From Planctomycetota bacterium (GTDB lineage Bacteria; Planctomycetota; B15-G4; JADJEK01): DNA of 64,000 bases. The stretch covers positions 21,287 through 85,286 of the forward strand of contig JBGAIQ010000005.1 in assembly GCA_044225365.1 (NCBI GenBank). The letters are read 5' to 3'. Every line of letters starts with the position of its first letter. Position 1 is the stretch's first letter. Below are positions 6,021 to 59,985 of the stretch, piece after piece. The notes under the pieces are model-generated. The model ran no database searches. It was not told the DNA's origin and saw only the letters and a program-made list of their open reading frames with translations. Position numbers and translations under genes: made by a program.

Positions 6021-6184
6021 CGCGTTCCGGACTCCTGTCGTTCCGGTGACCTTCCAGTCGCAGGCGAACCTTCGAAATCGCAGCGCGCGAACTCGATGGC
6101 CGCCCTATACTCTTGCGAATCGCGATGACACCGGCCAGTCATCGGTCCCCACATTTCGCCATCGTATCCAACAGGACCCCACCC

Positions 6185-7762: not shown

Positions 7763-7809
7763 CCATTGACGAGTGGCCAACGGCGGTGCCCCCCTCTACG
7801 ATCGGCGCC

Positions 7810-13492: not shown

Positions 13493-13506
13493 CCTCTCCC
13501 GTCCTG

Positions 13507-22717: not shown

Positions 22718-23052
22718 GTCCCGTCGCGTCGATGTTCCGTGAAAAGACGATTACATCGTCCGTTTTTCTCGGAGCCGACTCCGCTCGATTCCCCGATTCC
22801 TGACGAGATCATGCGGAGGGATTCCGCGACGCCACGATCGAGAATTGGGAATCTCGCGCGCCCCGATTCGACCCTTTCCACTCGCCTGCGTCGAGTCGAG
22901 CCCATCGCTCATGTCTTTCGGGCAGGAGTTCCCGAAAACGCTCGATCGCGAGCCACCGCCGCGAGCCTGAGGCGTTTCGCACGGGATTTGCGGCCGAAGG
23001 ACTCGACCTGTCCCGCCCTTGTCATCTTCCACCGGTCAAGGAATCGCTCGTG

Positions 23053-25464
23053 ATGCAACCCGACAACAGGCCTGATCCGATTCCGTCTCGACGCGCGCGC
23101 TGGCTCCGCGGTGCGATCGAGTCCGTTCCGATCCTCGCTGGTGCAGGCTTCCTGCTCGCTGCGATCCACTCGAGTACGGCGGCGGCCGATCCGCCGGCTC
23201 CGCCGGTCGCGGCCACCTCGACGCGGGTCATTGCGTGGAACGATCTCGGCATGCACTGCATGGATCCCGGCTACTCCGTCTTCGCGCTCCTGCCGCCCTT
23301 CAACGACTTCAAGTCGGCGCTCATCGTGAACGGCAAGCTGCAGAAGGCTGGCAATCCGTATCAGGTCTCGTATCGCGGGACTGCGTCGGCCACGGGCCAG
23401 TTGAACACGAGTTCGATCGGCAAGACCGACTTCTGGGATCACGTCCAGTCGATCTTCGGTGTGGCGCTGCCGCCCGACCACGGACTGGCGGGTCACGACA
23501 TGCCGGGTCCGTTGAACACGCCGCAGCCGATGAGCTTCGACGGGACGTGGAACTGGTTCGCCGCCGACGGCGTCCCGATCACTCCGTACGACGACACGAC
23601 GAAGGCGAACAACACGTATCCGCTGCTCGAAGCCATCGCGAAGGACGCCAACGGCACGACGATCGCCTCGACGTCGAACGTCGTTCCCGTCTCCGACGAG
23701 ATGGACTGCAGCCATTGCCACGCATCGGCCGCCAGTCCCTACGCAAAGCCGCTGAAGGGATGGGTCTTCGCGAGCAACACGATCGAGGACTATCGCCTCA
23801 ACATCCTGCGTCTGCATGACGAGAAGCAGGCGGGCAACGCGGCGTTCGCGAGTGCTCTCGCCGCGAAGGGCATGAATCCGCTCGGACTCGAGGCGACGGT
23901 GACGCAGGACGGTCATCCGATGCTGTGCGCCGCGTGTCATGCGAGCAATGCGTTGCCGGGCTCCGGCATCGCCGGGATCTCCCGCCTCACGTCGGCGCTC
24001 CACCTGAAGCACGCGAACGTCGTCGACACGACGGGCAAGACGCTCGATTCCGACACCAATCGCAGCGCCTGCTACGAGTGTCACCCTGGCTCCGTGACGC
24101 GCTGCCTGCGCGGCGCGATGGGCAGCGCCGTGGCAAAGGACGGCACCCTCGAGATGCAGTGCCAGAACTGCCACGGATCGATGAGCAAGGTTGGTGATCC
24201 GGCGCGACTCGGCTGGCTCGACGAACCGAGCTGCCAGCAGTGCCATACCGGTACCGCAACGCAGAACTCCGGGCAGATCCGATTCACCTCGGTCTACGAC
24301 GCCAACGGGAATCCGCACGTTCCGGCGAACCTCACCTTCGCGACCGACGCGAACGTGCCGGCCACGGGCTTCGATCTCTATCGCTTCTCCGACGGCCACG
24401 GCTCGCTGCAGTGCGAGGCGTGCCACGGCTCGACGCACGCGGAGTACCCGTCGTCGGAGCCGAAGGACAATCAGCAGAGCATCGCGGCGCAAGGACACAC
24501 CGGCATGCTCGTCGAGTGCCAGAGCTGTCACGGCACGGTCCCGTTCACCGTGAACGGCGGACCGCACGGCATGCACTCGATCGGACAATCCTGGGTGAAC
24601 CAGCACGGCGACATCGCCGAGACGCAGGGCACTTCGCAGTGCCGCACCTGCCATGGCACGGACTATCGCGGAACGGTCCTCTCCTATGCGCAGGACAACC
24701 GAACGTTCTCGACGGTATTCGGCACCAAGAGCTTCTTCAATGGTGCGCAGGTCGGCTGCTTCCACTGCCACAACGGCCCGGGCAGTGCAGATCCCATCAA
24801 CAATGCGGCACCTGTCGTCACCAACAAGAATGTCGCGACCCCGAACGACACGACGCTCACGGTGAACCTCGCCGGCACCGACGCCAACAACGATCCGCTC
24901 ACCTATCGCATCGTCGAGCAGCCCTCGCACGGTACGGTCGGGATCGCGGGCGCCGTGGCGACCTACTTCCCCGAGCCAGGTTTCGTGGGCACGACGACCT
25001 TCACGTTCGCCGCGTGGGACAACAAGACGAACTCCAACCTTGGAACCGTCACCGTCACGTCGAACGGTCCGAGCTGCCTCGGCGCCTCGAAGCGTTACGG
25101 CTTCGGTTGCGCGGGCACGGGCGGCGTCCTGCCGCAGCTCGACGTCACGGGCTGCCCGACACCGGGCAGCACGATCACCGTCGCGCTCACGAAGGGACTG
25201 CCAGGCGCGACTTCGATCGTCTTCGTCGGCGCAGGTCAGGGCGCGACAACGCTCCCCGCTGGATGCGTCCTGCGCGTGTTCCCGCTCCTGCCGTTCTCCT
25301 TCGCGATCCCCTTGAGCTCGGGAGTCGGCGGCGGAGCGTTCTCCCTCCCCGTGACGATTCCGCCCGCTACCACGGGCACTGCGACCCTCCAAGCGTTCGT
25401 CGTCGACCCGGGAGTGTGGCAAGGCTTCTCGGCGACGAACGGCGTCCAAGTGGACATCCACTGA
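23053..25464 (+). CDS. Secreted nonaheme c-type cytochrome with a C-terminal Ig/cadherin-like domain and conserved C-terminal module
   Basis: Nine CxxCH motifs are present (CSHCH, CAACH, CYECH, CQNCH, CQQCH, CEACH, CQSCH, CRTCH, CFHCH). The signal peptide is ...ILAGAGFLLAAIHSSTAAA. TYRIVEQPSHGTV is an Ig-like stretch. The last roughly 115 aa are shared with three other secreted proteins in the window. Confidence 0.75.
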   Translation: MQPDNRPDPIPSRRARWLRGAIESVPILAGAGFLLAAIHSSTAAADPPAPPVAATSTRVIAWNDLGMHCMDPGYSVFALLPPFNDFKSALIVNGKLQKAGNPYQVSYRGTASATGQLNTSSIGKTDFWDHVQSIFGVALPPDHGLAGHDMPGPLNTPQPMSFDGTWNWFAADGVPITPYDDTTKANNTYPLLEAIAKDANGTTIASTSNVVPVSDEMDCSHCHASAASPYAKPLKGWVFASNTIEDYRLNILRLHDEKQAGNAAFASALAAKGMNPLGLEATVTQDGHPMLCAACHASNALPGSGIAGISRLTSALHLKHANVVDTTGKTLDSDTNRSACYECHPGSVTRCLRGAMGSAVAKDGTLEMQCQNCHGSMSKVGDPARLGWLDEPSCQQCHTGTATQNSGQIRFTSVYDANGNPHVPANLTFATDANVPATGFDLYRFSDGHGSLQCEACHGSTHAEYPSSEPKDNQQSIAAQGHTGMLVECQSCHGTVPFTVNGGPHGMHSIGQSWVNQHGDIAETQGTSQCRTCHGTDYRGTVLSYAQDNRTFSTVFGTKSFFNGAQVGCFHCHNGPGSADPINNAAPVVTNKNVATPNDTTLTVNLAGTDANNDPLTYRIVEQPSHGTVGIAGAVATYFPEPGFVGTTTFTFAAWDNKTNSNLGTVTVTSNGPSCLGASKRYGFGCAGTGGVLPQLDVTGCPTPGSTITVALTKGLPGATSIVFVGAGQGATTLPAGCVLRVFPLLPFSFAIPLSSGVGGGAFSLPVTIPPATTGTATLQAFVVDPGVWQGFSATNGVQVDIH

Positions 25465-25560
25465 CCCCGTTTCTCATTTCCGGTCCGACCTCGCGCGCCG
25501 CGCTCCCTGAACGATGGGATCGCGGCGCGCGTCTTTCGTATTCCGGTCGTTCGTGTCGTG

Positions 25561-28260
25561 TCAATTCCCGTCGTTTTCCAGCTTCGTCGCGAGTTCCGGC
25601 CGCCCGGTCGCCCGATAGACCGCGGCGAGGTCCTTCATGATCGCCGCTCGCAGCTCCTTGGCGTCGGATGAGACGTCCTTCTGCGCGCGTGTCAGCTCGC
25701 GTTCCGCCGCTTCCCAATCGCGACGGCGGACGTGGATCTTCCCGAGCGCGCAATGCGCCGCGGCGTTGCCCGCGTCGTCCTGCGGTCGCGCGTCGATACT
25801 CGCCTGCAGGTCCAGGAGCGCGTGGTCGTCGTCCTTCGCATCCGCGCGGGCGAGCCCGAGCTCGTAGCGCGTGGCGGCGAGAGTGGGATGGTCCTTGGGA
25901 AGTGCGATCGTTCGGATGCGAAGCACTTCCACCCAGTCGGCGACCGCGTCCTCGTACTCTCCGCGCAGACGATGCAGTGCCGCTCGCTGCGAGATCGTGT
26001 CGGCGGTGCGCGGATGGTCCGCGTGGAATTGCTTCGTCGCGGCGACGACGGCTTCGTCGAGCGCAGCCTTTGCGCCAGCGAGATCCTTCTGCGCGAGCGC
26101 GACCTGGGCGAGTCGAGGCAGCAGGATTGCGAGCGCTTCGGCGCCGGCGCCGCGCAGCTTGCGCATCCCTTCGATCGCGCGTTCGAAGTCGGCGCGAGCC
26201 GCGGGGAGGTCGCCGTCCTTCAGCTCGATCGAGCCGCGGTTCGCGAGACATTGGAGCGTGAGGTAGGCGTCGTCGCCGAGGATGCGTCGCCGCAGGTCGT
26301 AGGCGATGTCCAGGTTCTCCCTCGCTTCCTTCGTCATCCCCAGTCGGAGGAGCGCGGCGCCGAGGTTGTTCCGACTCTCCGCGACGCTGAGCGAACCAGG
26401 GAACTCCTTCTCGCGGATCGCGAGCGCGTCGCGATGCAGCTCGTAGGCGGCCTTGAAATCCCCGCAGGCGGCGGTCGCCGCGGCGAGATCGTTCATGGCG
26501 CGGGCGATGTCCGAATGGACCTCGCGAGGATGGAGACGATGGATGCGCAGCGCTTGCGCGAGGGTGTCGCGCGCGGCGACCGCGTTCCCTTCTTCGAGTT
26601 CGAGGGCGCCGAGATTGCCGAGGCTGAGCGCGTGCTCGAGGTGATCGTCTCCGAAGAACCCCACGCGGATCTCGAGGGCTTCCTCGATGAGAGCCTTCGC
26701 CTCGTCGCGCAATCCGACGTGGCGCGCCGCGGTGCCGAGGGCGTCGATGAGGTTTGCGAGGACGTGGGGATCCGTTGCGTACTTCTTGCGAACGTCCGTC
26801 GCCTGCTGGAGCAGTCGTTCACGAACGCGATCGCGAAGCTGTGGCTCTTCGTAGAAGTCCGCCTTCAGGAAGACGTCGGTGAGCGCGTCCGTGACCTGGG
26901 CCGACGACTCGGCCTCGATCGATGCGTGGTTCGCTTGGTCGATGGCCACCTTCCGCGCCCTTTCGGCATCGTCTCGCTCGCGCGTCGCGCTTCGCGCGAA
27001 CGAGAGGCTGACGATCGTGCCGCCGAGGAGCGAGGCCATGAGTGCGATCCCGAGCGACGTCGCAACGCGATGTCGGCTGGCGAAACGCTCGATGCGATAC
27101 CACGTCGAAGGGGGCCGCGCGACCACCGGAAAGCCGTCGAGATGACGACGCACATCGGCGGCGAATTCGAGACAACTTCGATATCGCCGCGCTGGTTCCG
27201 ATTCGAGCGCCATCCCGACGATCCGATCGAGATCGCCGAGAAGCGAGCGAGCGAGCTTCTCCGGCGTCAGACCGCGCGCCGCCGCGCGAGCCACGATCTT
27301 CTCTCGCTCGGTCGCGGGCGACAGTACTCGCGCGCTCGGCGGAACGAGGAGTGTGCTCGCATCGGCGCCGTTCGCGATCGCGCGGATCTCGCCCTGGGAG
27401 AACGGACGGGTGCCGGTGAGGAGTTCGTGGAGCACGACGCCTAGCGACCAGACGTCGCTAGCGATGCCGACGGCGCCGCCGCGCATCTGTTCGGGGCTGG
27501 CGTATTCCGGTGTGTATGCCGCGGGATTCGTGCCCGTCGGCGGCTTCACCGTCTCGCCGGGTTCGCCCTCGCCCTCTCGCAACAGCGCCGCCACACCGAA
27601 GTCGACGATTCGCGGTTCACCGTCGCGAGTCACGAGGATATTGCTCGGCTTGAGATCACGGTGGAGCACGAGGCTTCGATGCGCGTGATCCGCTGCGAGG
27701 CAGATCGTCTCGAACAGACCGAGTCGCTCGCGTAACGTGAGCCGCCGCTCGTCGCAGAAGCGATCGAGATGCTCCCCGTCGACGAGTTCCATCACGATGT
27801 ACGGAACGCCGTCGGCCGTCGCACCGCCGTCGAGGAGGCGTGCGATGTTCTTGTGCTCGATCCGCCCGAGGAGGCGTGGCTCGCGCAGGAAACGCCTCCG
27901 CATCGTGTCGGAGAGCAGCCCGACGTGGAGCAGCTTCACCGCGACGGGTCGCGGGATCGACCCGTCCGCGCGCATGGCGCGGTAGACCGAGCCCATGCCG
28001 CCCTCGGCGATCTTGCTCTCGAGGCGCCAATTACCGAACGTGGCGCCGACGAATGGATCGACCTGGATGCTGGGGATCGCCGTGCCGTCGACGACTCCGT
28101 TCTCGATCCGATCGGCCTCGAGCATTCGCTCGACCTGCGCTCGCAGAGTCGAATCGTCGCCGCAGCTCGACGCCACGAATTCATCGCGTTCCGCAGCGGG
28201 ACGCGCCAGCGCCGCTTCGAAGAGCTGCTCGATCCTGCGCCAGCGTTCCGCGGTCCACAT
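25561..28260 (-). CDS. Serine/threonine protein kinase with C-terminal TPR repeats
   Basis: 899 aa with an ATG start. Kinase motifs are intact: GxGxxG-like GGMGSVYRA, VAVKLL, HRDLKPSNIL, DFGVA and SPEQ. A transmembrane segment is followed by about 500 aa of TPR-like helical repeats. Confidence 0.85.
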   Translation of the reverse strand: MWTAERWRRIEQLFEAALARPAAERDEFVASSCGDDSTLRAQVERMLEADRIENGVVDGTAIPSIQVDPFVGATFGNWRLESKIAEGGMGSVYRAMRADGSIPRPVAVKLLHVGLLSDTMRRRFLREPRLLGRIEHKNIARLLDGGATADGVPYIVMELVDGEHLDRFCDERRLTLRERLGLFETICLAADHAHRSLVLHRDLKPSNILVTRDGEPRIVDFGVAALLREGEGEPGETVKPPTGTNPAAYTPEYASPEQMRGGAVGIASDVWSLGVVLHELLTGTRPFSQGEIRAIANGADASTLLVPPSARVLSPATEREKIVARAAARGLTPEKLARSLLGDLDRIVGMALESEPARRYRSCLEFAADVRRHLDGFPVVARPPSTWYRIERFASRHRVATSLGIALMASLLGGTIVSLSFARSATRERDDAERARKVAIDQANHASIEAESSAQVTDALTDVFLKADFYEEPQLRDRVRERLLQQATDVRKKYATDPHVLANLIDALGTAARHVGLRDEAKALIEEALEIRVGFFGDDHLEHALSLGNLGALELEEGNAVAARDTLAQALRIHRLHPREVHSDIARAMNDLAAATAACGDFKAAYELHRDALAIREKEFPGSLSVAESRNNLGAALLRLGMTKEARENLDIAYDLRRRILGDDAYLTLQCLANRGSIELKDGDLPAARADFERAIEGMRKLRGAGAEALAILLPRLAQVALAQKDLAGAKAALDEAVVAATKQFHADHPRTADTISQRAALHRLRGEYEDAVADWVEVLRIRTIALPKDHPTLAATRYELGLARADAKDDDHALLDLQASIDARPQDDAGNAAAHCALGKIHVRRRDWEAAERELTRAQKDVSSDAKELRAAIMKDLAAVYRATGRPELATKLENDGN

Positions 28261-28572
28261 GTTCCGTCGTCTCTCTACAGCAGATCCCGATCGTAGCGCC
28301 GGCGCTCGCCCGTTCGAAGCGACCGCGACTCACGACGGCGGGTCCATCCTTCATGCATGCATGCGCCGAACGGCCTCCCATCCTGCCAATTTCGCCCGTT
28401 TCTCTCCCCGAAGGTCCGGATCGAAAATTCTTGGCAGCTCGTCGATCGGGAAATCGCATGCACTCGCACACGCCGTTGGAAGCGCCCCGCCCGCGATTCC
28501 ACGCACTCCCGACCGGCCCGCCGCGACGACGCTTCGATCGACCGCGGGCGAAAGCAAGTGAGGACTCACGTC

Positions 28573-31236
28573 ATGCAGACCCCGCTCATTCCATCTCTCC
28601 TATTCTTTGGCGTCATTGGCGCATCGAGCGCCGCGCTTGCCCAATTCCAGGACTTCCAGGGCTACACCGGATTCGACGTCGGACTGACCAGCCAGGTCCG
28701 ATTCCCGTCGGAGTTCCAGTTCGCCGACCTCGACGCCGACGGTCACGAGGACCTCGTCTTCGTGAGTCAGAGCGCCGCGTACCCACGACTCGGCGTGATG
28801 CTGAATCAGGGCGACGACACCTTTGCGCTTCCATCGTTCCAGGTGCTTCTCGCCGGCGCGGTCGACCTCGCGACTCTCGACATCGATGCAGATGGGGATC
28901 TCGACGTCGCCGTCGCCGAGGGCGGCGGCACGCTCGCCAACGGCCAGACGGTCGCGATCTTCAAGAACTCCGGAACCGGAGCGCTCAGCTTGAAACAGCG
29001 CGTCACGGTCGCCAAGGGCCCGGCGGGGATCGCGGCGGGTGACTTCGACGCGGACGGCGACGTCGACCTCGGTGTAGCGATCTACGGAGTCGCCGCGAGC
29101 GGAGCCTCGCTCCGCGTGCTCACCAACTCCGGCACCGGAACGTACGCGCTCGGCCCCTCGATCTCCTTGTCGAAGGCGCCCTATGGCGTTCGCTCCGGAG
29201 ATCTCAATGGCGATGGCAAGGCCGACCTCGTCGTCGTCCACGACAACGACATCCTCGATGTCCTGATCTCGACCGGCGCTTCGTTCGCGGCTCCGATCGT
29301 GTTCGACGTGAAGGCGACCACCACGCTCGGCGCCCATCTCTTCCCCTGCGTCGCGCTCGCCGACCTCGACCACGATGGCGATCTCGACATCGCGTTCTCG
29401 GACAACAATCACCAGAAGCAGAATCCCCTGCTCGTCGGGATCGTGACCGTGATCACGAATCAGGGTGGCGGCTCGTTCGCGATCGGCAACGACATCGTGT
29501 TGCGGCCCTACCAGAGCGGGTTCACCGACCTCGCGTTCGAGGACTTGAATGGAGATTCGTGGCTCGACGTTCTCGGTTGCGACCATTTCGACTGGGACTA
29601 CGTCCTTGCCGACGGCCAGGGCGGATTCCACGCCCCCACGACTCCGAGCTTCGGCTTGATCGCCGCCGATGAACCGACTGCGGTCGGCGCGCTCGACGTC
29701 GATCACGACGGGGATCTCGACGCCTTCGTCCTCGGCAGTCACTCGAACGCGATGACGATCCATCGCTTCGAGAACGGACAGCCCTTCGCGCCGCCGACCA
29801 CCGTCGGCCCCGACGGCGATCTCGACTTCGGCGATCTCGACGGCGACGGCGATCTCGACATCGTGGGCGGCGGCGGCGGGCCGATCTGGGTCACGATGAA
29901 CCAGGGCGGCGGCCACTTCGGTCCGGCGACGAACTTCCCGAGCTCGGCGTTCAACGGGCCGACGGCGGTCAAGCTCGCCGATTTGAACAACGATGGCCGG
30001 CCCGATCTCCTCATCGGCACCCTCAGCGGCTTCAACACGAAGCTCAACAACGGCAACGGCACGTTCGGCGCATTGACGCAGTGGAACATGCCGATCTGCG
30101 GCGGGAACGATCTCGATGCGGTCGATCTCGACAACGACGGCAATCTCGACATCGTCATTCCCGAATCCGCCGGTTGTCCCGGCGTCCCGTTCCCGCGCGT
30201 CTTCATCGCGAAGGGTCTCGGCAACGGAACGTTCGTCCCGCCGATCCAGTTCAACGCCACTTTCCTCGTCGAGAAGATGACCCACGCCGATCTCGACGGC
30301 GACGGCAATCAGGACCTCGTCCTCTCGGGCAACACGACGCTCGAGATCTATCGCGGCAACGGCAACCTCACCTTCCAGCCGAAGGTCCAGGTCCCCGCCG
30401 ACTTCGCGCCGCACGGGATCGTGGTGGCCGACCTGAACGGCGACTCGATCCTCGATCTCGCATCATGCAACTGGGGCAACATCGACGACGACGGGATCGA
30501 CGAGACGATGACGGTGTCGCTCGGCATCGATGGACTCACGTATGCGCCGAAGACGATCTACGCCGCGAACGGCTCGTGGGACCTCGGGTCCGTCCTCGGC
30601 ATCAGTGCCGCGGATGCCGATCGCGACGGCGACGTCGATCTCTTCGTGACCAATTTCGATTCGCACGACGTGTCGCTGTTCAAGAATCGTGGCGACGGCA
30701 CGTTCCTCGCCGCCACGCGTATCGGCGGCGTGAAGGACCTGACGGACTCGGTCGTCGCGGACTTCACGGGCGACGGCATCGTCGACATCGTGCTCACGGG
30801 AAGTTCCTGGGCGCCCTCGGTCGCGCCCGGCATCACGTTGCTCGAAGGCCTCGGAAACGACCCATGGATCGCGCTCGGCACCGGATCGAAAGGCACGCTC
30901 GGTGTGCCGCATCTCGACGGCGATGGCGCACTCGTCGCGGGCAACACGATCACGTTCCATCTCGCGAAGGCGCGACCGAACGCGACCGGGGTCTACATCG
31001 TCGGTTTCAGCACGCTGATGATGCCGTACCTCGGCAGCACATTGGTGCCGACCCCGAACCTGCTCCTCCCGCTCGGCGTCGATGCGACGGGCGCGGCGAG
31101 TCTCGAAGCGGCGCTGCCTCCGACGATCGCCGTCGGTTCGAGCTTCGACGTCGTCGCTCAGTGCTGGATCCTCGACCCGCTCGCGGCGAACGCGTACGCG
31201 GCGGCATCGAACGGCATCCTCGCCCACTCGCCCTGA
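28573..31236 (+). CDS. Secreted FG-GAP/VCBS (integrin-alpha-like beta-propeller) repeat protein with conserved C-terminal module
   Basis: Starts at an internal ATG of track ORF 28357..31236, giving the signal peptide MQTPLIPSLLFFGVIGASSAALA. About 14 repeats of DxDGDGxxD[LI]xV are present. The C-terminal roughly 110 aa form the shared module. Confidence 0.7.
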   Translation: MQTPLIPSLLFFGVIGASSAALAQFQDFQGYTGFDVGLTSQVRFPSEFQFADLDADGHEDLVFVSQSAAYPRLGVMLNQGDDTFALPSFQVLLAGAVDLATLDIDADGDLDVAVAEGGGTLANGQTVAIFKNSGTGALSLKQRVTVAKGPAGIAAGDFDADGDVDLGVAIYGVAASGASLRVLTNSGTGTYALGPSISLSKAPYGVRSGDLNGDGKADLVVVHDNDILDVLISTGASFAAPIVFDVKATTTLGAHLFPCVALADLDHDGDLDIAFSDNNHQKQNPLLVGIVTVITNQGGGSFAIGNDIVLRPYQSGFTDLAFEDLNGDSWLDVLGCDHFDWDYVLADGQGGFHAPTTPSFGLIAADEPTAVGALDVDHDGDLDAFVLGSHSNAMTIHRFENGQPFAPPTTVGPDGDLDFGDLDGDGDLDIVGGGGGPIWVTMNQGGGHFGPATNFPSSAFNGPTAVKLADLNNDGRPDLLIGTLSGFNTKLNNGNGTFGALTQWNMPICGGNDLDAVDLDNDGNLDIVIPESAGCPGVPFPRVFIAKGLGNGTFVPPIQFNATFLVEKMTHADLDGDGNQDLVLSGNTTLEIYRGNGNLTFQPKVQVPADFAPHGIVVADLNGDSILDLASCNWGNIDDDGIDETMTVSLGIDGLTYAPKTIYAANGSWDLGSVLGISAADADRDGDVDLFVTNFDSHDVSLFKNRGDGTFLAATRIGGVKDLTDSVVADFTGDGIVDIVLTGSSWAPSVAPGITLLEGLGNDPWIALGTGSKGTLGVPHLDGDGALVAGNTITFHLAKARPNATGVYIVGFSTLMMPYLGSTLVPTPNLLLPLGVDATGAASLEAALPPTIAVGSSFDVVAQCWILDPLAANAYAAASNGILAHSP

Positions 31237-31275
31237 AGATCTCCCTACGCTCCTCATGCGCCCGCGGCGGTCGGA

Positions 31276-31887
31276 TCATTCCGCCGCTGCGGGTGCGTCG
31301 CTTCCCGGCCCGCCAGGCAGCGCGCCGCCGATCTCGCTCTCCAAGTAGGCCCTCGCGATGCGCCAATCCCGCGCGACCGTCCGCTCCGAGGATTCGAGGA
31401 GCTGAGCGACCTCCGCGACCGAGAATCCACCGAAGAAGCGCAATTCGACGAGACGCGCCTTCTCGGGATCGACGACCGCGAGCTTCAAGAGCGCGGAATC
31501 GAGCGCGATCAAGCGATCGTCGGTCACCGGAACCGATTCGGCGGGATGACCGTCCCCGGTTCCGAGTTCGACCCGCTCGCGACCTCCGCCCCGCTTCTCG
31601 CTGCCGCGCGCGCGCGCATGCTCGATCAGGATGCGTCGAATCGTGCGGGCCGCGGCCGCGAAGAACTCGCCGCGCGAACCGATCGTCGGGAACGGCGCGC
31701 CGAAGAGGCGAAGATAGACCTCGTTCGCGAGCGCCGTCGGTTGCAACGTGTGATCCGCACGCTCGCCTTTGAGGAAATGGCGGGCGAGCCGACGGAAATC
31801 GGAATACACGGCCGACGCGAGTTCCCGTCCCGCGTCGGGATCCCCGTCGCGGGCGCGAGCGATCAGGCGATCGATGTCCACTTCCAT
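31276..31887 (-). CDS. ECF-type sigma-70 family RNA polymerase sigma factor (the kinase-associated ECF type)
   Basis: Starts at an internal ATG (MEVDIDRL...). Region 2, ...ALANEVYLRL..., and region 4, ...RLVELRFFGGFSVAEVAQLLESSERTVARDWRIARAYL, are both recognisable. No anti-sigma gene is adjacent. Confidence 0.75.
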   Translation of the reverse strand: MEVDIDRLIARARDGDPDAGRELASAVYSDFRRLARHFLKGERADHTLQPTALANEVYLRLFGAPFPTIGSRGEFFAAAARTIRRILIEHARARGSEKRGGGRERVELGTGDGHPAESVPVTDDRLIALDSALLKLAVVDPEKARLVELRFFGGFSVAEVAQLLESSERTVARDWRIARAYLESEIGGALPGGPGSDAPAAAE

Positions 31888-31965
31888 CCGGTAGCACTCC
31901 GTCGCGCGCGAGAATCGCTCAGCGCACGGCAACGCCCGGACAGGATAACAGGCGGACTCGATCCG

Positions 31966-33786
31966 TCAGGGTTTGAAGTCGACGCGCACCGCGTTCGAGA
32001 TCCCGACGCCATGCAGGAGGCTCGGGTCGACGTACACGTACTGCAAGTCGAGCGCGAGCGGGCCGCCGCCGCCGGGGATCGCCGGGATCTGGACCTGCCC
32101 CGCCGCGTTCGTGAACAACGAGACCTGGATCAGCACGGGCACCGTGACGAGCGTGCCGCCGAGGAAGGGAATCGGACTGACCTGGGTGCTCGCGAGCAGG
32201 ATCCCGGCCTGATTCGCCGCAGCGCCCGTGACGCTGAGCGCGGCCGTCGTGCCGGTCGACAGATCCCCTCCGCAGACGCTGAGCTTCGAGTTCCCGGGGC
32301 CGCCGAATCCGAGATCCAACTGGCAAACGTAGGCCGAGAACGACACGGGATTCGACGCGATCCCGTTGGCGACGACCTCGAGGGAGAACACACCGGGCGG
32401 CAGCGATGCCGGGAGCGTGAACTCGGTGCTCACCGGCAACGAACCCGTCATGACGCCCGTGCTGCTCCAATTGAAAGTCCGCGCGTAGTACACGCTCGTT
32501 CCGCTCGTGAGTCGCACGAGCGGGTAGTTGGAGTTCATCTGGAAGTCGTCGCCGTACGACGCGCCCTCCGAGATGCCGTTCAACTGCGTTCCGACGAGGT
32601 GGTACGAGCCGTTCGCGTTCGGCGTGATCGAGGTGATCGTCGGCTTGCCGGCCGCGAGCGGGCTGCCGGTCGGCTTGTAGACGTAGAGGTCCTTACCCAT
32701 GTGCGAGTAGAGCACGGTCCCGTCCGGCAGATCGAGCATCAAGGTCGTGAACGTGGGCGTGTTGTCCGTCGTTCCGTTCGGCGCGGGCTGCAGGCTGAAC
32801 GAGTTCGCGACCGGATCGTACTCGTAGAACGTCGTCGGCGCGGGAAAGCCATTGCCCGGCGACGGCGTCGGGCTGGTGGCGCAGAGCACGTTGCCCGTCA
32901 CGAGCATCGCCGCCGGCGCGTCCGGCGTGCCGTTGCCGTTCGGGATGTCCGGCCCTGCCGTCCACACTCCCTGCTGGAAGCCGAGCGAGGGCGTGTAGAG
33001 CGCGGTATGTCCCGTCGAGCCGAGGAAGAAGGCCTTGCCGCTCGGAAGCAGGAGCGCGCCGCCGAGCTCACCGACGTAGGGGTCGTAGAGCGAGACCGGA
33101 ACCGTCGCGTCGTTGATCCAGAGGTTGAAGAGCGAGATGAATCGCTCCGAGTGCGTACCGAACGGATCGATCGTGAGGATGCTGTTGTCTGGCAGCTTCA
33201 CCCAGCTCGCCTCGTCCTGGTATCCGCCGTATGCGAGCTGTGCCGCGTTCTGCCAAGTGTTGTTCACGGGGTCATAGATCAAACCCACGCCGTACGAATG
33301 CGGAACGACCGGCATCAAGAGCACTCGACCGTCCGAGAGCAGTTCGCTGTTGCAGTCGAAGAACAGATCGGTCGCCGTATTCCAGATCGCCGGCGGCGGA
33401 TCGACCTGCGTCCACACGTTGGTCTTCGGATCGAAGACCTCGGCATGCGGACCACCCGAGCCGTACTCCGCACCCGCCACGAACACGCGCCCGTCCTTCA
33501 GCACCTGCGACGGATAGTAGAGCCGCGTATCGTGCGCATCCGCGAATGCCGACCAGTAGCCATTCACGTAACTGCCATGGATGTCCGGATTGAGCCGATA
33601 CCACGACTTGCCGATCGTGCCTCCATCGTTCCTCGCCGCCATCACGGTGCCATCGGACAGGAGCAGCATCAGATTGACCGGACCCGGCGCAGTCTGATGG
33701 AGCTTGGTCCACGTTCCTGCGGACGCGACCTCGGGCAGCAACAAAACGGGAAGGAAGACGAGATGGCGGAAGCGGGAGGCGGACAT
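31966..33786 (-). CDS. Secreted Kelch/galactose-oxidase-like beta-propeller protein with conserved C-terminal module
   Basis: Starts at an internal ATG of track ORF 31966..33888, giving the signal peptide MSASRFRHLVFLPVLLLPEVASA. Repeated DGRV[FL]..G/DG[TS]V propeller blades are present. The C-terminal roughly 120 aa form the shared module. Confidence 0.6.
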   Translation of the reverse strand: MSASRFRHLVFLPVLLLPEVASAGTWTKLHQTAPGPVNLMLLLSDGTVMAARNDGGTIGKSWYRLNPDIHGSYVNGYWSAFADAHDTRLYYPSQVLKDGRVFVAGAEYGSGGPHAEVFDPKTNVWTQVDPPPAIWNTATDLFFDCNSELLSDGRVLLMPVVPHSYGVGLIYDPVNNTWQNAAQLAYGGYQDEASWVKLPDNSILTIDPFGTHSERFISLFNLWINDATVPVSLYDPYVGELGGALLLPSGKAFFLGSTGHTALYTPSLGFQQGVWTAGPDIPNGNGTPDAPAAMLVTGNVLCATSPTPSPGNGFPAPTTFYEYDPVANSFSLQPAPNGTTDNTPTFTTLMLDLPDGTVLYSHMGKDLYVYKPTGSPLAAGKPTITSITPNANGSYHLVGTQLNGISEGASYGDDFQMNSNYPLVRLTSGTSVYYARTFNWSSTGVMTGSLPVSTEFTLPASLPPGVFSLEVVANGIASNPVSFSAYVCQLDLGFGGPGNSKLSVCGGDLSTGTTAALSVTGAAANQAGILLASTQVSPIPFLGGTLVTVPVLIQVSLFTNAAGQVQIPAIPGGGGPLALDLQYVYVDPSLLHGVGISNAVRVDFKP

Positions 33787-33877
33787 GAGGCTCCTTGGGC
33801 AGGGCGACTTCGTGAGGAAGAGTCTACTCCAAGGAGTCGTCGAGGGTCCTGCGGCGAAGGCAGCGCCGAGACGACAG

Positions 33878-33912
33878 CATCCCCGCACTCGCTTTGCGCG
33901 AATGCGGGGATG
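33878..33912. terminator. Hairpin (10-bp stem CATCCCCGCA/TGCGGGGATG, about 15-nt loop) immediately 3' of tRNA-Arg on the minus strand
   Basis: Read directly; it begins about 10 nt after the tRNA's CCA end. Confidence 0.4.
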
Positions 33913-34035: not shown

Positions 34036-35778
34036 CTACTTCTTCTCGCCGCGATGGAGGCTGTGCACGAAGATGCCGTCCGTGCTGATCCGCGTCACGA
34101 CGGCGTCGCGTCCCGAGGTGAACGAAGCGAGCTTTTCCTTGTCGAGTTGCTCGATCGACATCGCCGAGTCGCGCTTGCCGAGACCCATCATGAACAACGC
34201 GAGCAGTCCGAAGTTCGCCTTCAAGCTGTCCGCCGCGTCCGTCGCGTAGATGACCGAGAAGGGACCCTTGCCGAGGGCCGCGAGCGTGCTCGCAAAGGCC
34301 GGGTCGGTGGCGAGCGACGGCAGCTTGCTCTCGCCGCCGCGACGTAGGATGTCCTTCAACAGCTCACTCGACGCCGAGATCACCATGAGGTCGGGCTGGA
34401 TCGTGTAGTGGAGCTTCACCGGCAGGATCGACGCAGGGAGCGTCCAGAGGATCTTGCCGTCGAACTCGCTGCGCTCTCGGATGGCGGCGAGGCCGTTCTC
34501 CTGGATGTACGCGTCGAGGGCCGTTTCGATCGTCTTGCCGTCGTCGATCTTGATCGCGACCGCGACGCTGTGCGGATCCTCCTCGGTGCCGGGGAGGGCC
34601 TCGGTCTCGTCCTTCACCTTCGAATACGCGATCGCGATCTCGTTGCCGAGCGGATCGAGCACGTCGCGGCGCAGGTTGAACTTGTCCGTCGACATCGAGT
34701 CCAACTCGGACTGCATCGTCTTCGCCGTCTCCGGATCGATCTTCTCCATCTCGGAGAGCAACGCCTCGAACCCGGCGCCGATGTCGAGATGAACCGTCGA
34801 GCCTCGCTCGACATCGCTCGAGAGTCTCGAGAGCAGGTTCATTGGACCCGCGGGGAAGAACTTCGACAGGATCGTGCCGATCGGCGTCTCGCCCTCGATG
34901 CGAACCTCGATCGAGTACTCGCTGGTCTTCGAGTCGACCTTGCCGCGCATCGCGGCGCGACCGATCTTGTCGACTCCGAGCTTGCGCGCCATCTCACTGT
35001 CCGAGACGTTCTTCTCGGACTCGAGTCCCTCGCGGACGATCGTGCCGAGATCCACGTAAGCGCGAAGGCCCGAACCGCTCGGATTCGCGCCGAGGGACGC
35101 CTCGAAATCCGCCTTCTTGGAAAGCGGGTTCTCGAGCTTGCCCGACAAGCCCTGGATCAATTGTTCGATCTCGTCGCGATCGCCGTCCTTCTGCGGCTGC
35201 ACGGTGAGCACGAACGTCGAACCGACGACCGCATACGCCAGTTCGGCCGGCTTGTCGTTCTCCGACTTCGCCTTCTCCGTGACGATCGTCACCGAAACAC
35301 CCTCGATCTCGCGCGTCTCCTGCGAGCCCTTGCCCTCGTCGATCTCCTTCTTCAGGAGGTCGCTGAACTGCTGCGCGAGCTCTCCGGCATGATCGCCGCC
35401 GCCCAGCAGGAAACCGATGCGAGGAATCGAGACTCGCTGCTTGAAGAAGTCGGGATCCGAAGCCGCGGAATCGAAGAAGACCAGCGCGGCGCCGCCCTCG
35501 ATCTTCTCGAGCATGGCGAACGGATCGGCGCCGGCATCCTGCGCGATCTTGCTGCGCATCTCGCTGAAGGTCTTCCAGAAGTCCTCCCGCACCGCGTCCA
35601 TCGACGGGTCCATGAGGCAGCGTCCGAGATCGCTGGCCTTGAAATCCGCGATCGTCTGCTCGACGTCGTCGCACTCGAGGAACCCCCACACGTCGGCCGG
35701 CACGGCCTTCTCGTAGGCATCGCCCGCGATCGCCGTGGCGGAAAGTGCAAGGGTGGAAAGAAGCGTGTTGCGGATCAT
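34036..35778 (-). CDS. Secreted hypothetical protein (paralog A of a tandem pair)
   Basis: 580 aa with an ATG start and signal peptide MIRNTLLSTLALSATAIAG. It shares ADVW..CDDV, ETREI.G..V, GST.FVL and the ...GDSKLPSLA.D... block with the upstream gene. Confidence 0.6.
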   Translation of the reverse strand: MIRNTLLSTLALSATAIAGDAYEKAVPADVWGFLECDDVEQTIADFKASDLGRCLMDPSMDAVREDFWKTFSEMRSKIAQDAGADPFAMLEKIEGGAALVFFDSAASDPDFFKQRVSIPRIGFLLGGGDHAGELAQQFSDLLKKEIDEGKGSQETREIEGVSVTIVTEKAKSENDKPAELAYAVVGSTFVLTVQPQKDGDRDEIEQLIQGLSGKLENPLSKKADFEASLGANPSGSGLRAYVDLGTIVREGLESEKNVSDSEMARKLGVDKIGRAAMRGKVDSKTSEYSIEVRIEGETPIGTILSKFFPAGPMNLLSRLSSDVERGSTVHLDIGAGFEALLSEMEKIDPETAKTMQSELDSMSTDKFNLRRDVLDPLGNEIAIAYSKVKDETEALPGTEEDPHSVAVAIKIDDGKTIETALDAYIQENGLAAIRERSEFDGKILWTLPASILPVKLHYTIQPDLMVISASSELLKDILRRGGESKLPSLATDPAFASTLAALGKGPFSVIYATDAADSLKANFGLLALFMMGLGKRDSAMSIEQLDKEKLASFTSGRDAVVTRISTDGIFVHSLHRGEKK

Positions 35779-35791
35779 CGAGTTTTCCTAG

Positions 35792-37690
35792 TCACTGTTT
35801 TTCGTTGAGCCAGAGTGCGCGTACGCGGATCCCGCGGGCGTCGATGGACAAGCCGCTGACCGCGCGACCCGTGATGTACTTCTTGATGTCGTCCGCCGTG
35901 ATCGAGCCGAGCGTCGATTCGATTTCGGGTTTCCTGAGGACGAGGCCCTGGCGCATTCCAGCGAGGAAAGCGGAGGTGTAGGTCGCGGAATCGACCTCGG
36001 AGACGATCGATTGCGACGACTCACCGAGCGCGGCGAAACCGGCCTTGATCGATTCGTCGCTCGCGAGCGACGGCAGCTTCGAATCCCCACTGCGACGCAG
36101 GACGTCTTCCACGATCTCGCGCGCCGCGGAGATGACGAGCTGATCGTTGGTGAGCGAGTACGAGACCTCGATCCCGAGAGGCGTGGGGATCGTGAAGATG
36201 ACGCGACCCTCGAACTCGGTTCGACGGCGGATCGCGTCGAGGCCTTGCCCCTTCAACAGGGCCTCGAGACTCGTCTCGAGCGCCGCACCATCCTTCAGCT
36301 CGACGATGAAACCGACGTTCGAAGGATCGTCCTCACTGCCGGGCAACGCCTGGTTCTCGTCCTTCACGGCGATGCGGAAGACCGCGACCTCGCGCCCGAG
36401 CAGGGCGAGGAGTTGCGTTTGCAAGTCGAAGCCGCCGACCTTGGCCTCCTCGAGGCCCGATCGCATTTCGGAAGCCGCGTCGGGTTCCACGACGTCGAGG
36501 AACTCCCCGAGCGATTCGATCGCGGCGGGAAAGTCGACGTGGAACAGCATCGCGTTGCGCGCTTCGACGGGGATCTTCGAAGCGAGTCCGAACTTGCCGC
36601 TCGGCAGCAGGCGCTCGAGCAGCTTCGTGAGCACGCTCGAATCCTCCATCGAGAGCTCGAGCCCCGCAGAGGAACCCGTCGCGGCGGGAGTGAATTGCAG
36701 CGCGAAGTATCCGAGATGCTGCAGGCCGAGCGCTTCGAGCTTCTGTGCGCCTTCGAGCGAGATGCCATGACTCTCCGGCTCGTCGTCGGCCTCGTCCATG
36801 TCCTCGTCGTAGTCCTCGCCCTCGTCGTCGCCCGCCCCATCCGAATCCGGATCGTCGATGTACGCGTCCGTGTCTTCGTCGGCAGAGTCGCCCTCGACGA
36901 TCCCGCTCTCGTGGGCGTGCTTCAGCGCCGACGCCAGGATCGATCCGACGTTGACGAACGCATGGAGCGCTCCGCCGCCGCCGGGTCCGGCCTGCGCGGA
37001 CTTGTAGAAGGGAGAGTCGGCGAGCGACTCGTGCGGTTCTCCGGCCAGGCCGCGCACGACGGATTCGAGGCGTTCCGGCTTCGCGTGATGGAGATCGGAC
37101 CCGAGCACGAACACGGTGGAACCGACCATTCCGATCGCGAGTTCGGAGGGTTTCGCATCGTCGGGCTTGTCGTCGAAGACTTCGACCGCGATTCCCGCGA
37201 TCTCCCGCGTCTCCTTCACGACCTTCCCCTTCGCGACGTCCTCGCCCACCGAGTCCTCGATCTTCGCGAGCAACTCCGGAGCATGCCCCTCGGCCCCGAA
37301 GAGGAAGAGGAGCGGCGGGTACTCCGCTTCGCCGAAGACGTACTCGGGATCGAAGGCCGAGGGATCGAGCACCGCGAGCGCCGAAGGCCCGTCCAGAAGC
37401 TGCAAGAACTCGAGCGGGTCGGGCCCACCCTTTTCGGCGGCCTCCTTGCGCATCGTCTCGAACATCGCGACGACCGCGTCTCGCACCGGCGCGAACTTCG
37501 GATCCGCGAAGAGTCGGCCCAACTCCGTGCTCTCCACGCCGGCGACGAGTCCCTTGACGTCATCGCATCCGATGTATGCCCAGACATCGGCCGGCAGCGC
37601 GTGATCGAGCGTGAGCGGCGGAGACGGGTCACCGCCGAAGGCGATCCCGCACGACAGCAGGGAGGCAAAGCCAAGGACTCGCAGCTTCAT
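35792..37690 (-). CDS. Secreted hypothetical protein (paralog B) with a 45-aa poly-acidic insert
   Basis: Starts at the ATG at 37690 (the track ORF begins one codon earlier at a GTG). The signal peptide is MKLRVLGFASLLSCGIAFG. The insert EGDSADEDTDAYIDDPDSDGAGDDEGEDYDEDMDEADDEPE is absent from paralog A. Confidence 0.6.
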   Translation of the reverse strand: MKLRVLGFASLLSCGIAFGGDPSPPLTLDHALPADVWAYIGCDDVKGLVAGVESTELGRLFADPKFAPVRDAVVAMFETMRKEAAEKGGPDPLEFLQLLDGPSALAVLDPSAFDPEYVFGEAEYPPLLFLFGAEGHAPELLAKIEDSVGEDVAKGKVVKETREIAGIAVEVFDDKPDDAKPSELAIGMVGSTVFVLGSDLHHAKPERLESVVRGLAGEPHESLADSPFYKSAQAGPGGGGALHAFVNVGSILASALKHAHESGIVEGDSADEDTDAYIDDPDSDGAGDDEGEDYDEDMDEADDEPESHGISLEGAQKLEALGLQHLGYFALQFTPAATGSSAGLELSMEDSSVLTKLLERLLPSGKFGLASKIPVEARNAMLFHVDFPAAIESLGEFLDVVEPDAASEMRSGLEEAKVGGFDLQTQLLALLGREVAVFRIAVKDENQALPGSEDDPSNVGFIVELKDGAALETSLEALLKGQGLDAIRRRTEFEGRVIFTIPTPLGIEVSYSLTNDQLVISAAREIVEDVLRRSGDSKLPSLASDESIKAGFAALGESSQSIVSEVDSATYTSAFLAGMRQGLVLRKPEIESTLGSITADDIKKYITGRAVSGLSIDARGIRVRALWLNEKQ

Positions 37691-37737
37691 CACGCTACCT
37701 CGATTCTAGAACCGATCCCTTGCCACGAACCCACGCT

Positions 37738-40071
37738 TCATTCCTGCGGATACACGATCACTCGGTCGTGGACGATGATCGCCACGTCCGGCTTGCCGTC
37801 GCCCGTGCAGTCCGCGACGACGACCTCGCGCGGCTCGCGACCGCCGCGCTCCACCTCGAAGATCCGCGTCTCGAAGATCGTGAAACGAATCGCGTACTCG
37901 AGACTGTCCTTTCGGATCGCAGCGAACAGGAGTTGATGATCGACGGTCTCGCTGATCGCGACGTCGGCATTCTTGTCGCCATTCACGTCCCCCACCGCGA
38001 GGCGATCGGGAAACGCGTTCTTCAGCGGGAGATCGAAGTCCGCGACGACGGAGAAGCCCGCGTCGCTCGCTCCGTTCTTCACGACGGCGAGGCGATCGGC
38101 CGCGCCGACGACGATGTCCTGACGACCGTCGCCATCGAGATCGGCGCCCGCGATCATCGCGGGCGCGACGCCTGCGAGATCGACCTTGGCCTTGCGCACG
38201 GTCTGGTCGGCGTCGACCGCCCAGACCTCGAGATGCGCGCCGGTCTTGTTCGAGACCAGGAGCTCGTTCTTGCCGTCCCCATCGAGATCGAGCAATGTGA
38301 CGCGATCGACCTGCGCCGCGGGATCGTCGAGATTCAACTGCAACACCGTCTGCGGCTTGCCATCGGCGTCGAGGTAGATCGCGCGGGCGAAGTTGCCCTT
38401 CGGAACGATCAGCTCGTTCTTGCCGTCTCCGTCGGCGTCTCCGAACGTGAGTTGCGTACGCTCGAGCCCGTTCAAGATGCCGAGGCCGCGTTCCTCGAGT
38501 TTGACGTCCGCGTACTTGCCGTCCGCCGTCGCGAGCAGGAGTCGTGGAAGACTGCGCGGGAAGAACAGGAGCGCGTCGCGCTTGCCGTCGCGATTCACGT
38601 CGATGAGCCAGAGATCGGCCGGATCCTTCGGCAACTTGCCGAGATCGAACGTCGACCGCACCGCACCCTTCTCGTCGAGCGCGACGAGCGCGCCCTTCCG
38701 GTCCGAGCCCTTTCCGGACGCGGACACGATCACGATCTCGGCCTTCTTGTCGCCGTCGAGATCCGCGGCGTCGAGTGCGACGACGTCGCCGCCGTCCGGG
38801 ATCGGTAGTGCGTTGGGGAACGCGATCCCCGACTTCGGGTCGACCTTTGCGACGCCGATCACGCGTTCGGCGGCCGAGGCCACCACGAGTTCGAGTCTGC
38901 CGTCGCCGTCGACGTCTGCGAGACGCGGCTTGGCGACGCCGGAGAACGACGCCGCGATCTCGGGCGCGATGCTGCCGCCGAGGAGATCGCGATACAACAC
39001 GACCTGCGCCGCGCTCGGCTCGACGACGAGCAATTCGGACTTGTGATCGCCGTCGATGTCGCCGAAGACGAACTCGCGCTGATCCGCGTCCTTGATCGCT
39101 TGGAACGCGACCGAGCGCAGTTGCGATAGCGGCCCGTTGTCCGTCGTCTCGTCCTTCTTGTATCGCAGCAGCGCGAGGCGGCCGCTCTTGCTGCGGATCG
39201 CGACCGCTTCGGCGCCGGGCTCGTTGTCGAAATCGCCGACGACGAGCGCGCGGATCTCCGCGAAGCGCGAGGCGAGCTCGGGACCGAACGTCGCGCCGCC
39301 CTTGCCGAGCCGGAAGCGGATGGGCCACTCCGAATTGCCGACTGCGTAGGTGAGGTCGAGCTTGCCGTCGCCGTCGACGTCGAGGAGGTTCAACTGATCG
39401 GCGCCGCGAGTGGCGTTCGGCAAGCGCTTGCCCTCACCGAAACGACCGCCCTTGTCGGCACCGCTCGAGAGGAACAGATAGGTGTCATCGACACCGAGCA
39501 CGACGAGATCGAGCTTGCCGTCACCGTCGAGATCTCCCGACTTCAACGCGCTGTTGACGCCGCTCGCCTTCGTCACGTCGAGCCGCTGGACGAGCGAGTA
39601 GTCGGCGTGGTCGCCGCGCTTCTCGATCGTGACCTTCCCGGAATCACCGAGGTAGATCAACTCGGGCTTCTTGTCGCCGTCGAGATCGGCGAACGCGATC
39701 GCGGAGACCTTCTCCTCGACCGGCACGCTCTCGCGCACGAACGTGGTCTCGTCCGGGAGATCGTTCATCCGCTCGCGGCCTTCGCCCTTCTTGCCGTCGG
39801 TGGCCTTCTCGCCGGCCTTGGGCCGGCGCAGCAGTTCGATGCGTGCGCGCCCGTTGTTGACGAGAGCGAGGTCGCCCAGGCCGTCGCCGTCCACGTCGGC
39901 CGCGACGAGATCGCTGATCCCTTCACCGATCTTGGAGACGAGCAGCCCCTTCCACCCATAGTCGCCGGCGATCTTGCTGATCGTGTCCGAAGTCGTGTCG
40001 GTGTCGCCCGGCGCGACAGCCGGGGTGCAGGGAACGAACGCGAGCAGCACGGAAGCAATCGACGAAACCAT
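37738..40071 (-). CDS. Secreted FG-GAP/VCBS repeat protein
   Basis: Starts at an internal ATG (MVSSIASVLLAFVPCTPAVA). About 12 repeats of DxDGDGKxD/E[LI] (ADVDGDGLGDL, DLDGDGKLDL, DVDGDGKLDL, DLDGDGKNEL...) are present. Confidence 0.7.
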   Translation of the reverse strand: MVSSIASVLLAFVPCTPAVAPGDTDTTSDTISKIAGDYGWKGLLVSKIGEGISDLVAADVDGDGLGDLALVNNGRARIELLRRPKAGEKATDGKKGEGRERMNDLPDETTFVRESVPVEEKVSAIAFADLDGDKKPELIYLGDSGKVTIEKRGDHADYSLVQRLDVTKASGVNSALKSGDLDGDGKLDLVVLGVDDTYLFLSSGADKGGRFGEGKRLPNATRGADQLNLLDVDGDGKLDLTYAVGNSEWPIRFRLGKGGATFGPELASRFAEIRALVVGDFDNEPGAEAVAIRSKSGRLALLRYKKDETTDNGPLSQLRSVAFQAIKDADQREFVFGDIDGDHKSELLVVEPSAAQVVLYRDLLGGSIAPEIAASFSGVAKPRLADVDGDGRLELVVASAAERVIGVAKVDPKSGIAFPNALPIPDGGDVVALDAADLDGDKKAEIVIVSASGKGSDRKGALVALDEKGAVRSTFDLGKLPKDPADLWLIDVNRDGKRDALLFFPRSLPRLLLATADGKYADVKLEERGLGILNGLERTQLTFGDADGDGKNELIVPKGNFARAIYLDADGKPQTVLQLNLDDPAAQVDRVTLLDLDGDGKNELLVSNKTGAHLEVWAVDADQTVRKAKVDLAGVAPAMIAGADLDGDGRQDIVVGAADRLAVVKNGASDAGFSVVADFDLPLKNAFPDRLAVGDVNGDKNADVAISETVDHQLLFAAIRKDSLEYAIRFTIFETRIFEVERGGREPREVVVADCTGDGKPDVAIIVHDRVIVYPQE

Positions 40072-40201
40072 CCGCAAAGCCTCTCGAACGATGACGCGGG
40101 AATCGAGCGAGTCTACGGGAGGACTTCCGGGCAGGAAAGCATGGAGACTCGCCCAGATTCACACGGCGGGCGGCGACGGGATCGGCTTCGGGGGAGCCGG
40201 G

Positions 40202-59969: not shown

Positions 59970-59985
59970 GAGCTTCGCATCGCGA

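Follow-up and report, generated by a model that had tools for sequence, protein, structure and literature searches.

This analysis concerns a stretch of 64,000 nucleotides from a Planctomycetota bacterium (contig JBGAIQ010000005.1 of assembly GCA_044225365.1, positions 21,287 to 85,286 of the forward strand; hereafter the window), in which four genes for proteins with signal-peptide-like N-termini end in one and the same C-terminal domain, here called the module. The genes (A to D) and their modules are listed below in window coordinates; for genes B, C and D the limits are those of the longest open reading frame (ORF), and the translation of each module was verified.

23050..25464, plus strand: gene A (804 aa), with a signal-peptide-like N-terminus, nine CXXCH motifs, an MtrC/MtrF-like domain, a Big_9/cadherin-like immunoglobulin-like (Ig-like) domain and module A (Pfam)
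25075..25461, plus strand: module A, the C-terminal 129 aa of the nonahaem cytochrome
28357..31236, plus strand: gene B, an FG-GAP/VCBS beta-propeller protein (longest ORF 959 aa; Pfam FG-GAP_3, 4.6e-74)
30862..31233, plus strand: module B, the C-terminal 124 aa of the FG-GAP protein
31966..33888, minus strand: gene C, a Kelch-repeat protein (longest ORF 640 aa; Pfam Kelch matches)
31969..32325, minus strand: module C, the C-terminal 119 aa of the Kelch protein
3042..4853, minus strand: gene D, a PD40-repeat protein (longest ORF 603 aa; Pfam PD40, 4.7e-16)
3045..3437, minus strand: module D, the fourth copy, the C-terminal 131 aa of the PD40 (TolB-like) propeller protein

The likely start codons are at 28573 for gene B (MQTPLIPSLLFFGVIGASSAALAQ, which gives a signal-peptide-like N-terminus), at 33786 for gene C (MSASRFRHLVFLPVLLLPEVASAG) and at 4745 for gene D (MRTLAAIVVLGFASLPLVHAG); on an independent assembly gene D was called as 567 aa. 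A signal-peptide-like segment is found at the N-terminus of all four proteins. In protein A, a Big_9/Cadherin match (residues 585-670) precedes the module (residues 676-804). A first-pass annotation, made earlier from the letters of this DNA, had claimed that proteins A, B and C share a C-terminal module of about 110 aa behind unrelated N-terminal folds. Its gene positions and quoted tail strings were exact, and Pfam confirmed that the folds are unrelated (cytochrome, FG-GAP and Kelch), but the module is longer than stated, at about 120-130 aa. The fourth segment to which it alluded is real and corresponds to module D, although gene D lies outside the interval of 25120-32330 that had been given for the modules.

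Direct comparison of the modules by BLASTP gave 31.5% identity over 111 aa for A and B (E 6e-5) and 28% identity over 111 aa for B and C (E 0.004), while A and C aligned over their final 25 aa only (E 0.03). Because such pairwise matches are too weak alone, profile tests were used in their place. A profile hidden Markov model (HMM) of the three sequences, searched against the six-frame translation of the window, returned module D as a fourth copy (E 6e-7). A non-circular HMM was then built from 150 database modules and zero window sequences and was searched against the six-frame ORFs of the window. It recovered module A at E 4e-45 (148 bits), module B at E 6e-18 (60 bits), module D at E 2e-16 (55 bits) and module C at E 3e-9 (32 bits). 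With the same HMM, the best of 6875 shuffled or reversed decoy sequences reached 8.2 bits, and among 4000 shuffles of the four tails with matched composition the highest score was 11.4 bits. The module is a true homologous domain common to proteins with unrelated N-terminal folds, and the claim that proteins A, B and C end in one module was borne out, together with the significance of their similarity.

The genome has 65% G+C, and the likeness might in principle be a chance compositional resemblance among Gly/Ala/Pro-rich tails, as the short A-C alignment would allow. Against this explanation stand the scores of 32-148 bits for the four modules, the thousands of relatives in databases and the confident and concordant AlphaFold models of two subtypes. 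Chance resemblance is extremely improbable, being ruled out by the non-circular HMM scores and the decoy and shuffle maxima.

A second Kelch protein is encoded at 6113..7693 on the plus strand, and about 110 residues after its signal peptide weakly resemble the module (…ISFQAIGGVTGIGQATNLVRVTP). Residues ~45-140 (~nt 6250..6540) were matched by hmmsearch with a score of 13.5 bits (E 1.6e-3), little more than the 11.4 bits of the best decoy, and hhalign aligned the same stretch over 81 columns with 30% identity (E 0.01). From its sequence, this stretch may be a divergent N-terminal copy of the module.

Fold, family size and subtypes

AlphaFold2 models were computed from alignments of the window sequences with homologous database proteins. 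Module A was predicted as an eight-strand beta-sandwich with a pLDDT of 90.5 and a pTM of 0.81, and module C as a beta-sandwich with the strand order of module A (pLDDT 93.2, pTM 0.83). By these models the fold of the module is an Ig-like beta-sandwich, without a close solved relative or a hint of a ligand. Its structural neighbours are generic Ig or macroglobulin (MG) domains only, and the best match of a profile search of PDB sequences was to antibody light chains, at E 0.012.

The module is absent from the curated domain libraries. No Pfam or NCBIfam model covers the final ~125 residues of proteins A, B and C; 36 isolated modules gave no match to either library at E<=0.01; and no Pfam family lies over the module in 95 full-length carriers. 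The named Ig-like families of Pfam (Big_1/2/3/9, PKD, CARDB, TIG, FlgD_ig, PPC and others) likewise gave no profile match over it, and the source annotations of the carriers read 'hypothetical protein'. The first-pass annotation had named, as an objection to its own claim, that the module might prove to be an already named Ig-like domain; since the family is absent from both libraries searched, this objection fails, even though the fold itself is Ig-like. The module is a domain family new to Pfam-A and NCBIfam, within the known kind of C-terminal beta-sandwich and docking modules.

An exhaustive HMMER search, in which 1.84 billion cluster representatives (clusters at 50% identity) were compared with a profile of five sequences, gave 8410 clusters when the threshold was E<=1e-3; of these, 2200 remained at E<=1e-10 and 2 at E<=1e-30. 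In the 150 best matches the module is present once per protein without exception, and it ends within two residues of the C-terminus in 149 (no residue left in 122, one in 24, two in 3 and five in the remaining one). Nothing in composition sets the linker upstream of the module apart from the cargo. The final residue of the proteins is not conserved, the commonest being P, Q, E, R and H. Recognition of the C-terminus of the PDZ or beta-signal type was considered and rejected, since the proteins end variably, for the most part in P, Q, E or R.

Several subtypes can be distinguished. The consensus of the main subtype is C..YG.GC.GSGGFVP.L...GCP.PG...L....GLGG..A.L..G...A..P.G.GC.LLV.P...LPL.G.GPG.G....IP......LQAFV.DPG...GFS.TNGV...I. 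and four cysteines, which probably form two disulfides in this subtype, occur in 93 of the 150 modules. Module A belongs to this '4-Cys' subtype (C..YGFGC.GTGG..P.L...GCP.PG...GC.L.V.P...LQAFVVDPG...GFS.TNGV.). Module C represents a second, 2-Cys subtype (CQxDLGFGGPG...VCGG...GGTLV.VP...GGGGP...Q..YVDP...G.SNAV.), the general pattern of which is CQxDLGFGGPG...VCG...GGTLVP.P...GGGGP, and is 54% identical to the database protein P0002. Modules B and D are Cys-poor variants; module B is free of cysteine and has a 'GSTLVPTP' motif. All subtypes keep two or three glycines close to the beginning of the module and a single glycine midway along it, and their last two strands hold the motif Q....D(P)....G...(S)N. 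Subtypes within one genome share 21-35% identity only and are closer to modules of other genomes than to each other.

Cargo, host range and likeness to known systems

The Pfam content of the 95 full-length carriers scanned was FG-GAP in 24, FG-GAP_2 in 20, DUF4394 in 9, DUF6923 in 6 and beta-helix in 3, with further matches to Kelch, TIG, SBBP, Chlamydia-PMP repeats, WD40 and LDL-receptor class B and with one protein kinase. Beta-propellers make up more than half of the recognisable cargo, and three of the four carriers in the window are of this kind. The cargo is mostly non-enzymatic, consisting of beta-propeller, beta-helix or Ig-repeat proteins. NCBIfam models added HAF-repeat and DNRLRE proteins and one 'choice-of-anchor Z' repeat protein (NF058597, E 2e-129); the last is probably P0120, the carrier richest in PGGG repeats. 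A hydrophobicity heuristic found a signal-peptide-like N-terminus in 106 of 120 full-length matches. The module is a mobile domain, and these N-termini, together with its cysteines, speak for a place outside the cytoplasm.

A few carriers depart from the usual architecture. Proteins P0005, P0007 and P0009 consist of a signal peptide and the module alone, and the gene of P0005 sits in the interior of contigs of 21 kb and 32 kb. In P0010 the module is N-terminal, placed between the signal peptide, which it follows directly, and a beta-helix. The receptor-type kinase P0123 (MCA9691924.1), from a metagenome-assembled genome (MAG) of Myxococcales, has an N-terminal Ser/Thr kinase domain and one transmembrane (TM) helix; its extracytoplasmic part has an FG-GAP region that closes with the module (residues 607-730). 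In this protein the module is thus found on a membrane-spanning protein and, unless the MAG is misbinned, apparently outside Planctomycetota.

Related loci were collected with a nine-sequence alignment and a single peptide pattern, [LM]QAFV[VI]D[PGN]G, in a one-genome-per-species collection; because of the single pattern, the taxonomic sample is narrow and biased to the main subtype, and the true range may be wider. Fourteen genome loci were obtained, all from MAGs, of which 12 are labelled Planctomycetota, Phycisphaeraceae or Phycisphaera, one 'Candidatus Aquidulcis' and one 'bacterium'. The carriers are mainly Phycisphaerae-type Planctomycetota. A scan of metagenomes gave three loci, too few for neighbourhood statistics, and plasmids gave no match by tblastn. 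More than one module gene is present in 9 of 18 regions, with four in this 64-kb window and four in a locus of 15 kb (L012). In the latter, on a contig of a Planctomycetota MAG (DASUFI010000293.1, 3704..14969), four or five module-bearing ORFs were observed within 15 kb, and two of these overlap but are read in different frames; the ORFs may be paralogues arrayed in tandem or frameshifted copies. Two other loci, L002 and L008, encode module-bearing proteins that resemble protein B across the FG-GAP cargo.

One role for such a domain would be a passive one, as a cap or stabiliser of propellers, an adhesive tip or a spacer, with no shared partner and no part in sorting; its C-terminal position would then reflect spread by 3' fusion, which leaves the signal peptide intact. 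The generic Ig or MG character of its structural neighbours is consistent with this explanation, as are the prevalence of propellers among the cargo, the low identity of subtypes within a genome (each nearer to modules of other genomes) and the stand-alone, N-terminal and kinase-linked copies, which pose no problem to it. Generic bacterial Ig-like domains (Big_2, PKD, alpha-2-macroglobulin MG), however, are usually tandem and internal, whereas the module matches none of their models and is single in all of the 150 best matches and terminal in 149. A structural role specific to propellers, moreover, cannot be general, given that a multihaem cytochrome, beta-helices, TIG arrays and the choice-of-anchor Z protein are among the cargo as well. 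A passive domain is considered an unlikely, though still serious, explanation.

The secreted proteins of Bacteroidota that end in the C-terminal domain (CTD) of the type IX secretion system (T9SS; PF18962/TIGR04183 and TIGR04131) offer a close parallel. The T9SS CTD is also a last domain in single copy with an Ig-like beta-sandwich fold, is carried by many unrelated Sec-exported cargoes with many carriers per genome and has a restricted lineage range. The two differ in that no match to PF18962, TIGR04183 or TIGR04131 was obtained at E<=0.1 with proteins A-C and 36 isolated modules, in agreement with the earlier statement that T9SS motifs are not evident. In addition, T9SS CTDs are roughly 70-100 aa long, whereas the module has ~125 aa and, in its main subtype, four conserved cysteines. 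Carriers of the module come from Planctomycetota and, in one case, from a Myxococcales MAG; the surroundings of their genes showed no T9SS genes, and the module has stand-alone, N-terminal and membrane-kinase-linked copies.

By analogy, the module could be the recognition domain of an undescribed pathway of outer-membrane translocation and attachment, similar in function to the T9SS CTD; it would be recognised in the periplasm, would guide the cargo across the outer membrane and would probably be cleaved. Such an export signal would account for the near-absolutely C-terminal, single-copy position on diverse Sec cargo, for several carriers per region and for the restricted lineages. Ig-like beta-sandwiches are the general fold class of T9SS CTDs, and the Q, D, G and N residues conserved across subtypes lie in the last two strands of the module. 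The T9SS CTD models are nevertheless unmatched, no secretion-machinery gene is present in the window and none is prominent among the neighbours of related loci. Some copies are stand-alone or N-terminal, conservation is lacking at the last residues, and P0123 carries the module together with a TM helix. Since this helix lies between the kinase domain and the module, secretion of P0123 through the outer membrane is probably impossible. Overall, an export signal of this kind appears improbable.

Choice-of-anchor and HAF cargo, as named in NCBIfam, normally precede C-terminal anchors. Among these are the tripartite signals and their enzymes (PEP-CTERM/exosortase, MYXO-CTERM/myxosortase, GlyGly-CTERM/rhombosortase and LPXTG/sortase), which share with the module a C-terminal position, many proteins per genome, a varied surface cargo and, specifically, the choice-of-anchor Z and HAF-repeat cargo families. 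In tripartite signals, which are short, a signature motif is followed by a TM helix and then by an Arg-rich or basic cluster at the C-terminus (10.1101/2023.06.07.544157). The module differs from them as a folded domain of ~125 aa without TM helix or basic tail. Proteins A-D have neither feature at their C-termini: the maximum Kyte-Doolittle hydropathy over 19 residues in the last 45 aa is 0.78-1.22 across the four, and their tails end in ...DIH, ...HSP, ...FKP and ...SSD. A tripartite or PEP-CTERM-like tail was found in none of the window ORFs, and the -CTERM models of NCBIfam gave no match. The module is not a cleaved tripartite sortase-type signal, and in excluding PEP-CTERM, MYXO-CTERM, LPXTG and GlyGly-CTERM the first-pass annotation was correct.

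Dockerin (PF00404), S-layer homology (SLH) domains and cell-wall-binding repeats are, like the module, non-catalytic and mostly C-terminal on diverse secreted proteins, and dockerin would also share with it the proposed logic by which many cargoes dock to one partner. Dockerin is a Ca-binding, duplicated helical module, whereas the module is predicted to be all-beta, has no Pfam match and carries mostly non-enzymatic cargo; no cohesin-like scaffold was identified. PPC (PF04151) is a C-terminal beta-sandwich on secreted proteins as well, thought to aid secretion and then to be removed. It sits on proteases and is often duplicated; the module, in contrast, has no Pfam match, is never duplicated and has an almost entirely non-proteolytic cargo. 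Because matches to the defining profiles were tested and none was obtained, the module lies outside the T9SS CTD and dockerin families by membership; by analogy, these two would be its nearest functional counterparts.

A proposed docking role for the module

A near-obligate C-terminal single copy on diverse exported cargo, one of them a 'choice-of-anchor Z' protein, is what a tag or docking module would be expected to show. The first-pass annotation had suggested a sorting or anchoring tag or a dockerin-like module, and the terminal single-copy pattern agrees with that suggestion, while the unusual architectures argue against a pure export signal. The reading that we favour, with a probability of roughly 0.4, is that the module is a docking domain that binds one shared partner of the envelope or surface after Sec export. 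The cargo would be exported by Sec, and the terminal domain would fold and be oxidised outside the cytoplasm. It would then bind a common partner, either a protein receptor or a polymer of the envelope, so that a varied repertoire of binding proteins would be held at the cell envelope, following the logic of dockerins and cell-wall-binding domains. Docking is preferred to an export signal because of the stand-alone, N-terminal and kinase-linked copies; P0123, for example, can make use of a binding domain beyond its membrane, which is consistent with docking.

Several points weigh against this docking role. No sortase, rhombosortase, exosortase or T9SS-like gene was found by Pfam among the window genes scanned, and no partner, receptor or processing enzyme in the window or among the neighbours in 17 related loci of up to 20 kb; the co-occurring processing enzyme for which the first-pass annotation had advised a search was thus not encountered in either. 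Dockerin, SLH and LysM domains are less strictly terminal than the module, the near-absolute C-terminal position of which is not fully explained by docking alone. The subtypes of one genome, at 21-35% identity, might lack a common partner. Nothing on the module, experimental data included, was found in the literature.

More broadly, Planctomycetota, and perhaps some Myxococcota with them, may possess an undescribed system of protein targeting for which the module serves as the address tag, a proposal that we advance tentatively and consider rather doubtful. A dedicated receptor, translocon or attachment machinery would recognise the folded, disulfide-bonded C-terminal domain, and dozens of binding proteins per cell would be placed on the surface. 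Such a system would be a counterpart of the T9SS CTD or of cohesin-dockerin pairs, built from unrelated parts.

Protein sorting to the unusual planctomycete envelope is poorly understood. To our knowledge, Planctomycetota are without T9SS and have PEP-CTERM in some lineages only. A family of at least 2200-8400 clusters provides a usable marker for a large and coherent set of probable surface proteins, and the module itself is a handle for a partner search. If a partner exists, a new docking or export route would be at hand; if none exists, a curated model is still deserved, because thousands of 'hypothetical' proteins would gain annotation.

Protein A is of separate interest as an exported nonahaem c-type cytochrome with a match to domain II/IV of the MtrC/MtrF outer-membrane cytochromes. 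In this planctomycete-like genome it may serve in electron transfer while exposed on the cell surface; if the module does bring proteins to the surface, a planctomycete would have there, in protein A, a potential agent of extracellular electron transfer.

Neighbouring genes and further observations in the window

Two further genes lie between the module genes of the window.

25561..28260, minus strand: Ser/Thr protein kinase with TPR repeats, between genes A and B (Pfam Pkinase 3.2e-40; TPR_12)
31276..31932, minus strand: extracytoplasmic function (ECF) sigma factor of the PF07638 type, between genes B and C (Pfam 1.2e-53)

When the neighbours were clustered over the 17 related loci and the window, ECF sigma factors and Ser/Thr kinases were the only ones that recurred beside module genes. 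ORFs of the ECF sigma type (~210 aa) are close to module genes in L002 (17258-17899), L008 (3593-4234) and L013 (11356-11985), and in L010 one such ORF (10512-11207) is accompanied by a kinase (11111-13951). Related kinases are found near module genes in L002, L010 and L021, and L002 and L008 have several further neighbouring ORFs in common. The module proteins may belong to regulons of ECF sigma factors and Ser/Thr kinases, though the adjacency could also be due to chance. Both families are very abundant in the carrier genomes, and for this reason the adjacency is given as a side observation only. The PF07638 type of the sigma factor in the window and the distribution of the homologues would by themselves indicate Planctomycetota as the source of the DNA.

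Two tandem genes for exported proteins that look alike by eye occupy 34036..35778 (580 aa) and 35792..37693 (633 aa) on the minus strand, the product of the first having a weak DUF3352 match. The pair (34036..37693) adjoins a gene for an FG-GAP protein without the module (37738..40077, minus strand). Elsewhere in the window, a gene for an EutN/CcmL vertex protein (7786..8127, plus strand) shares a few bases with a class II aldolase gene (8124..8849, plus strand); the pair (7786..8849) looks to belong to a locus for a bacterial microcompartment of the kind in which planctomycetes degrade sugars. Finally, the gene at 54852..60068 on the minus strand encodes a fusion protein of 1738 aa, in which a Ser/Thr kinase, TPR and GAF domains, a sigma-54 activator AAA+ domain and a Fis-type helix-turn-helix are combined. 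Judged from its domains, this product would represent a signalling chain from kinase to enhancer-binding protein in one polypeptide.

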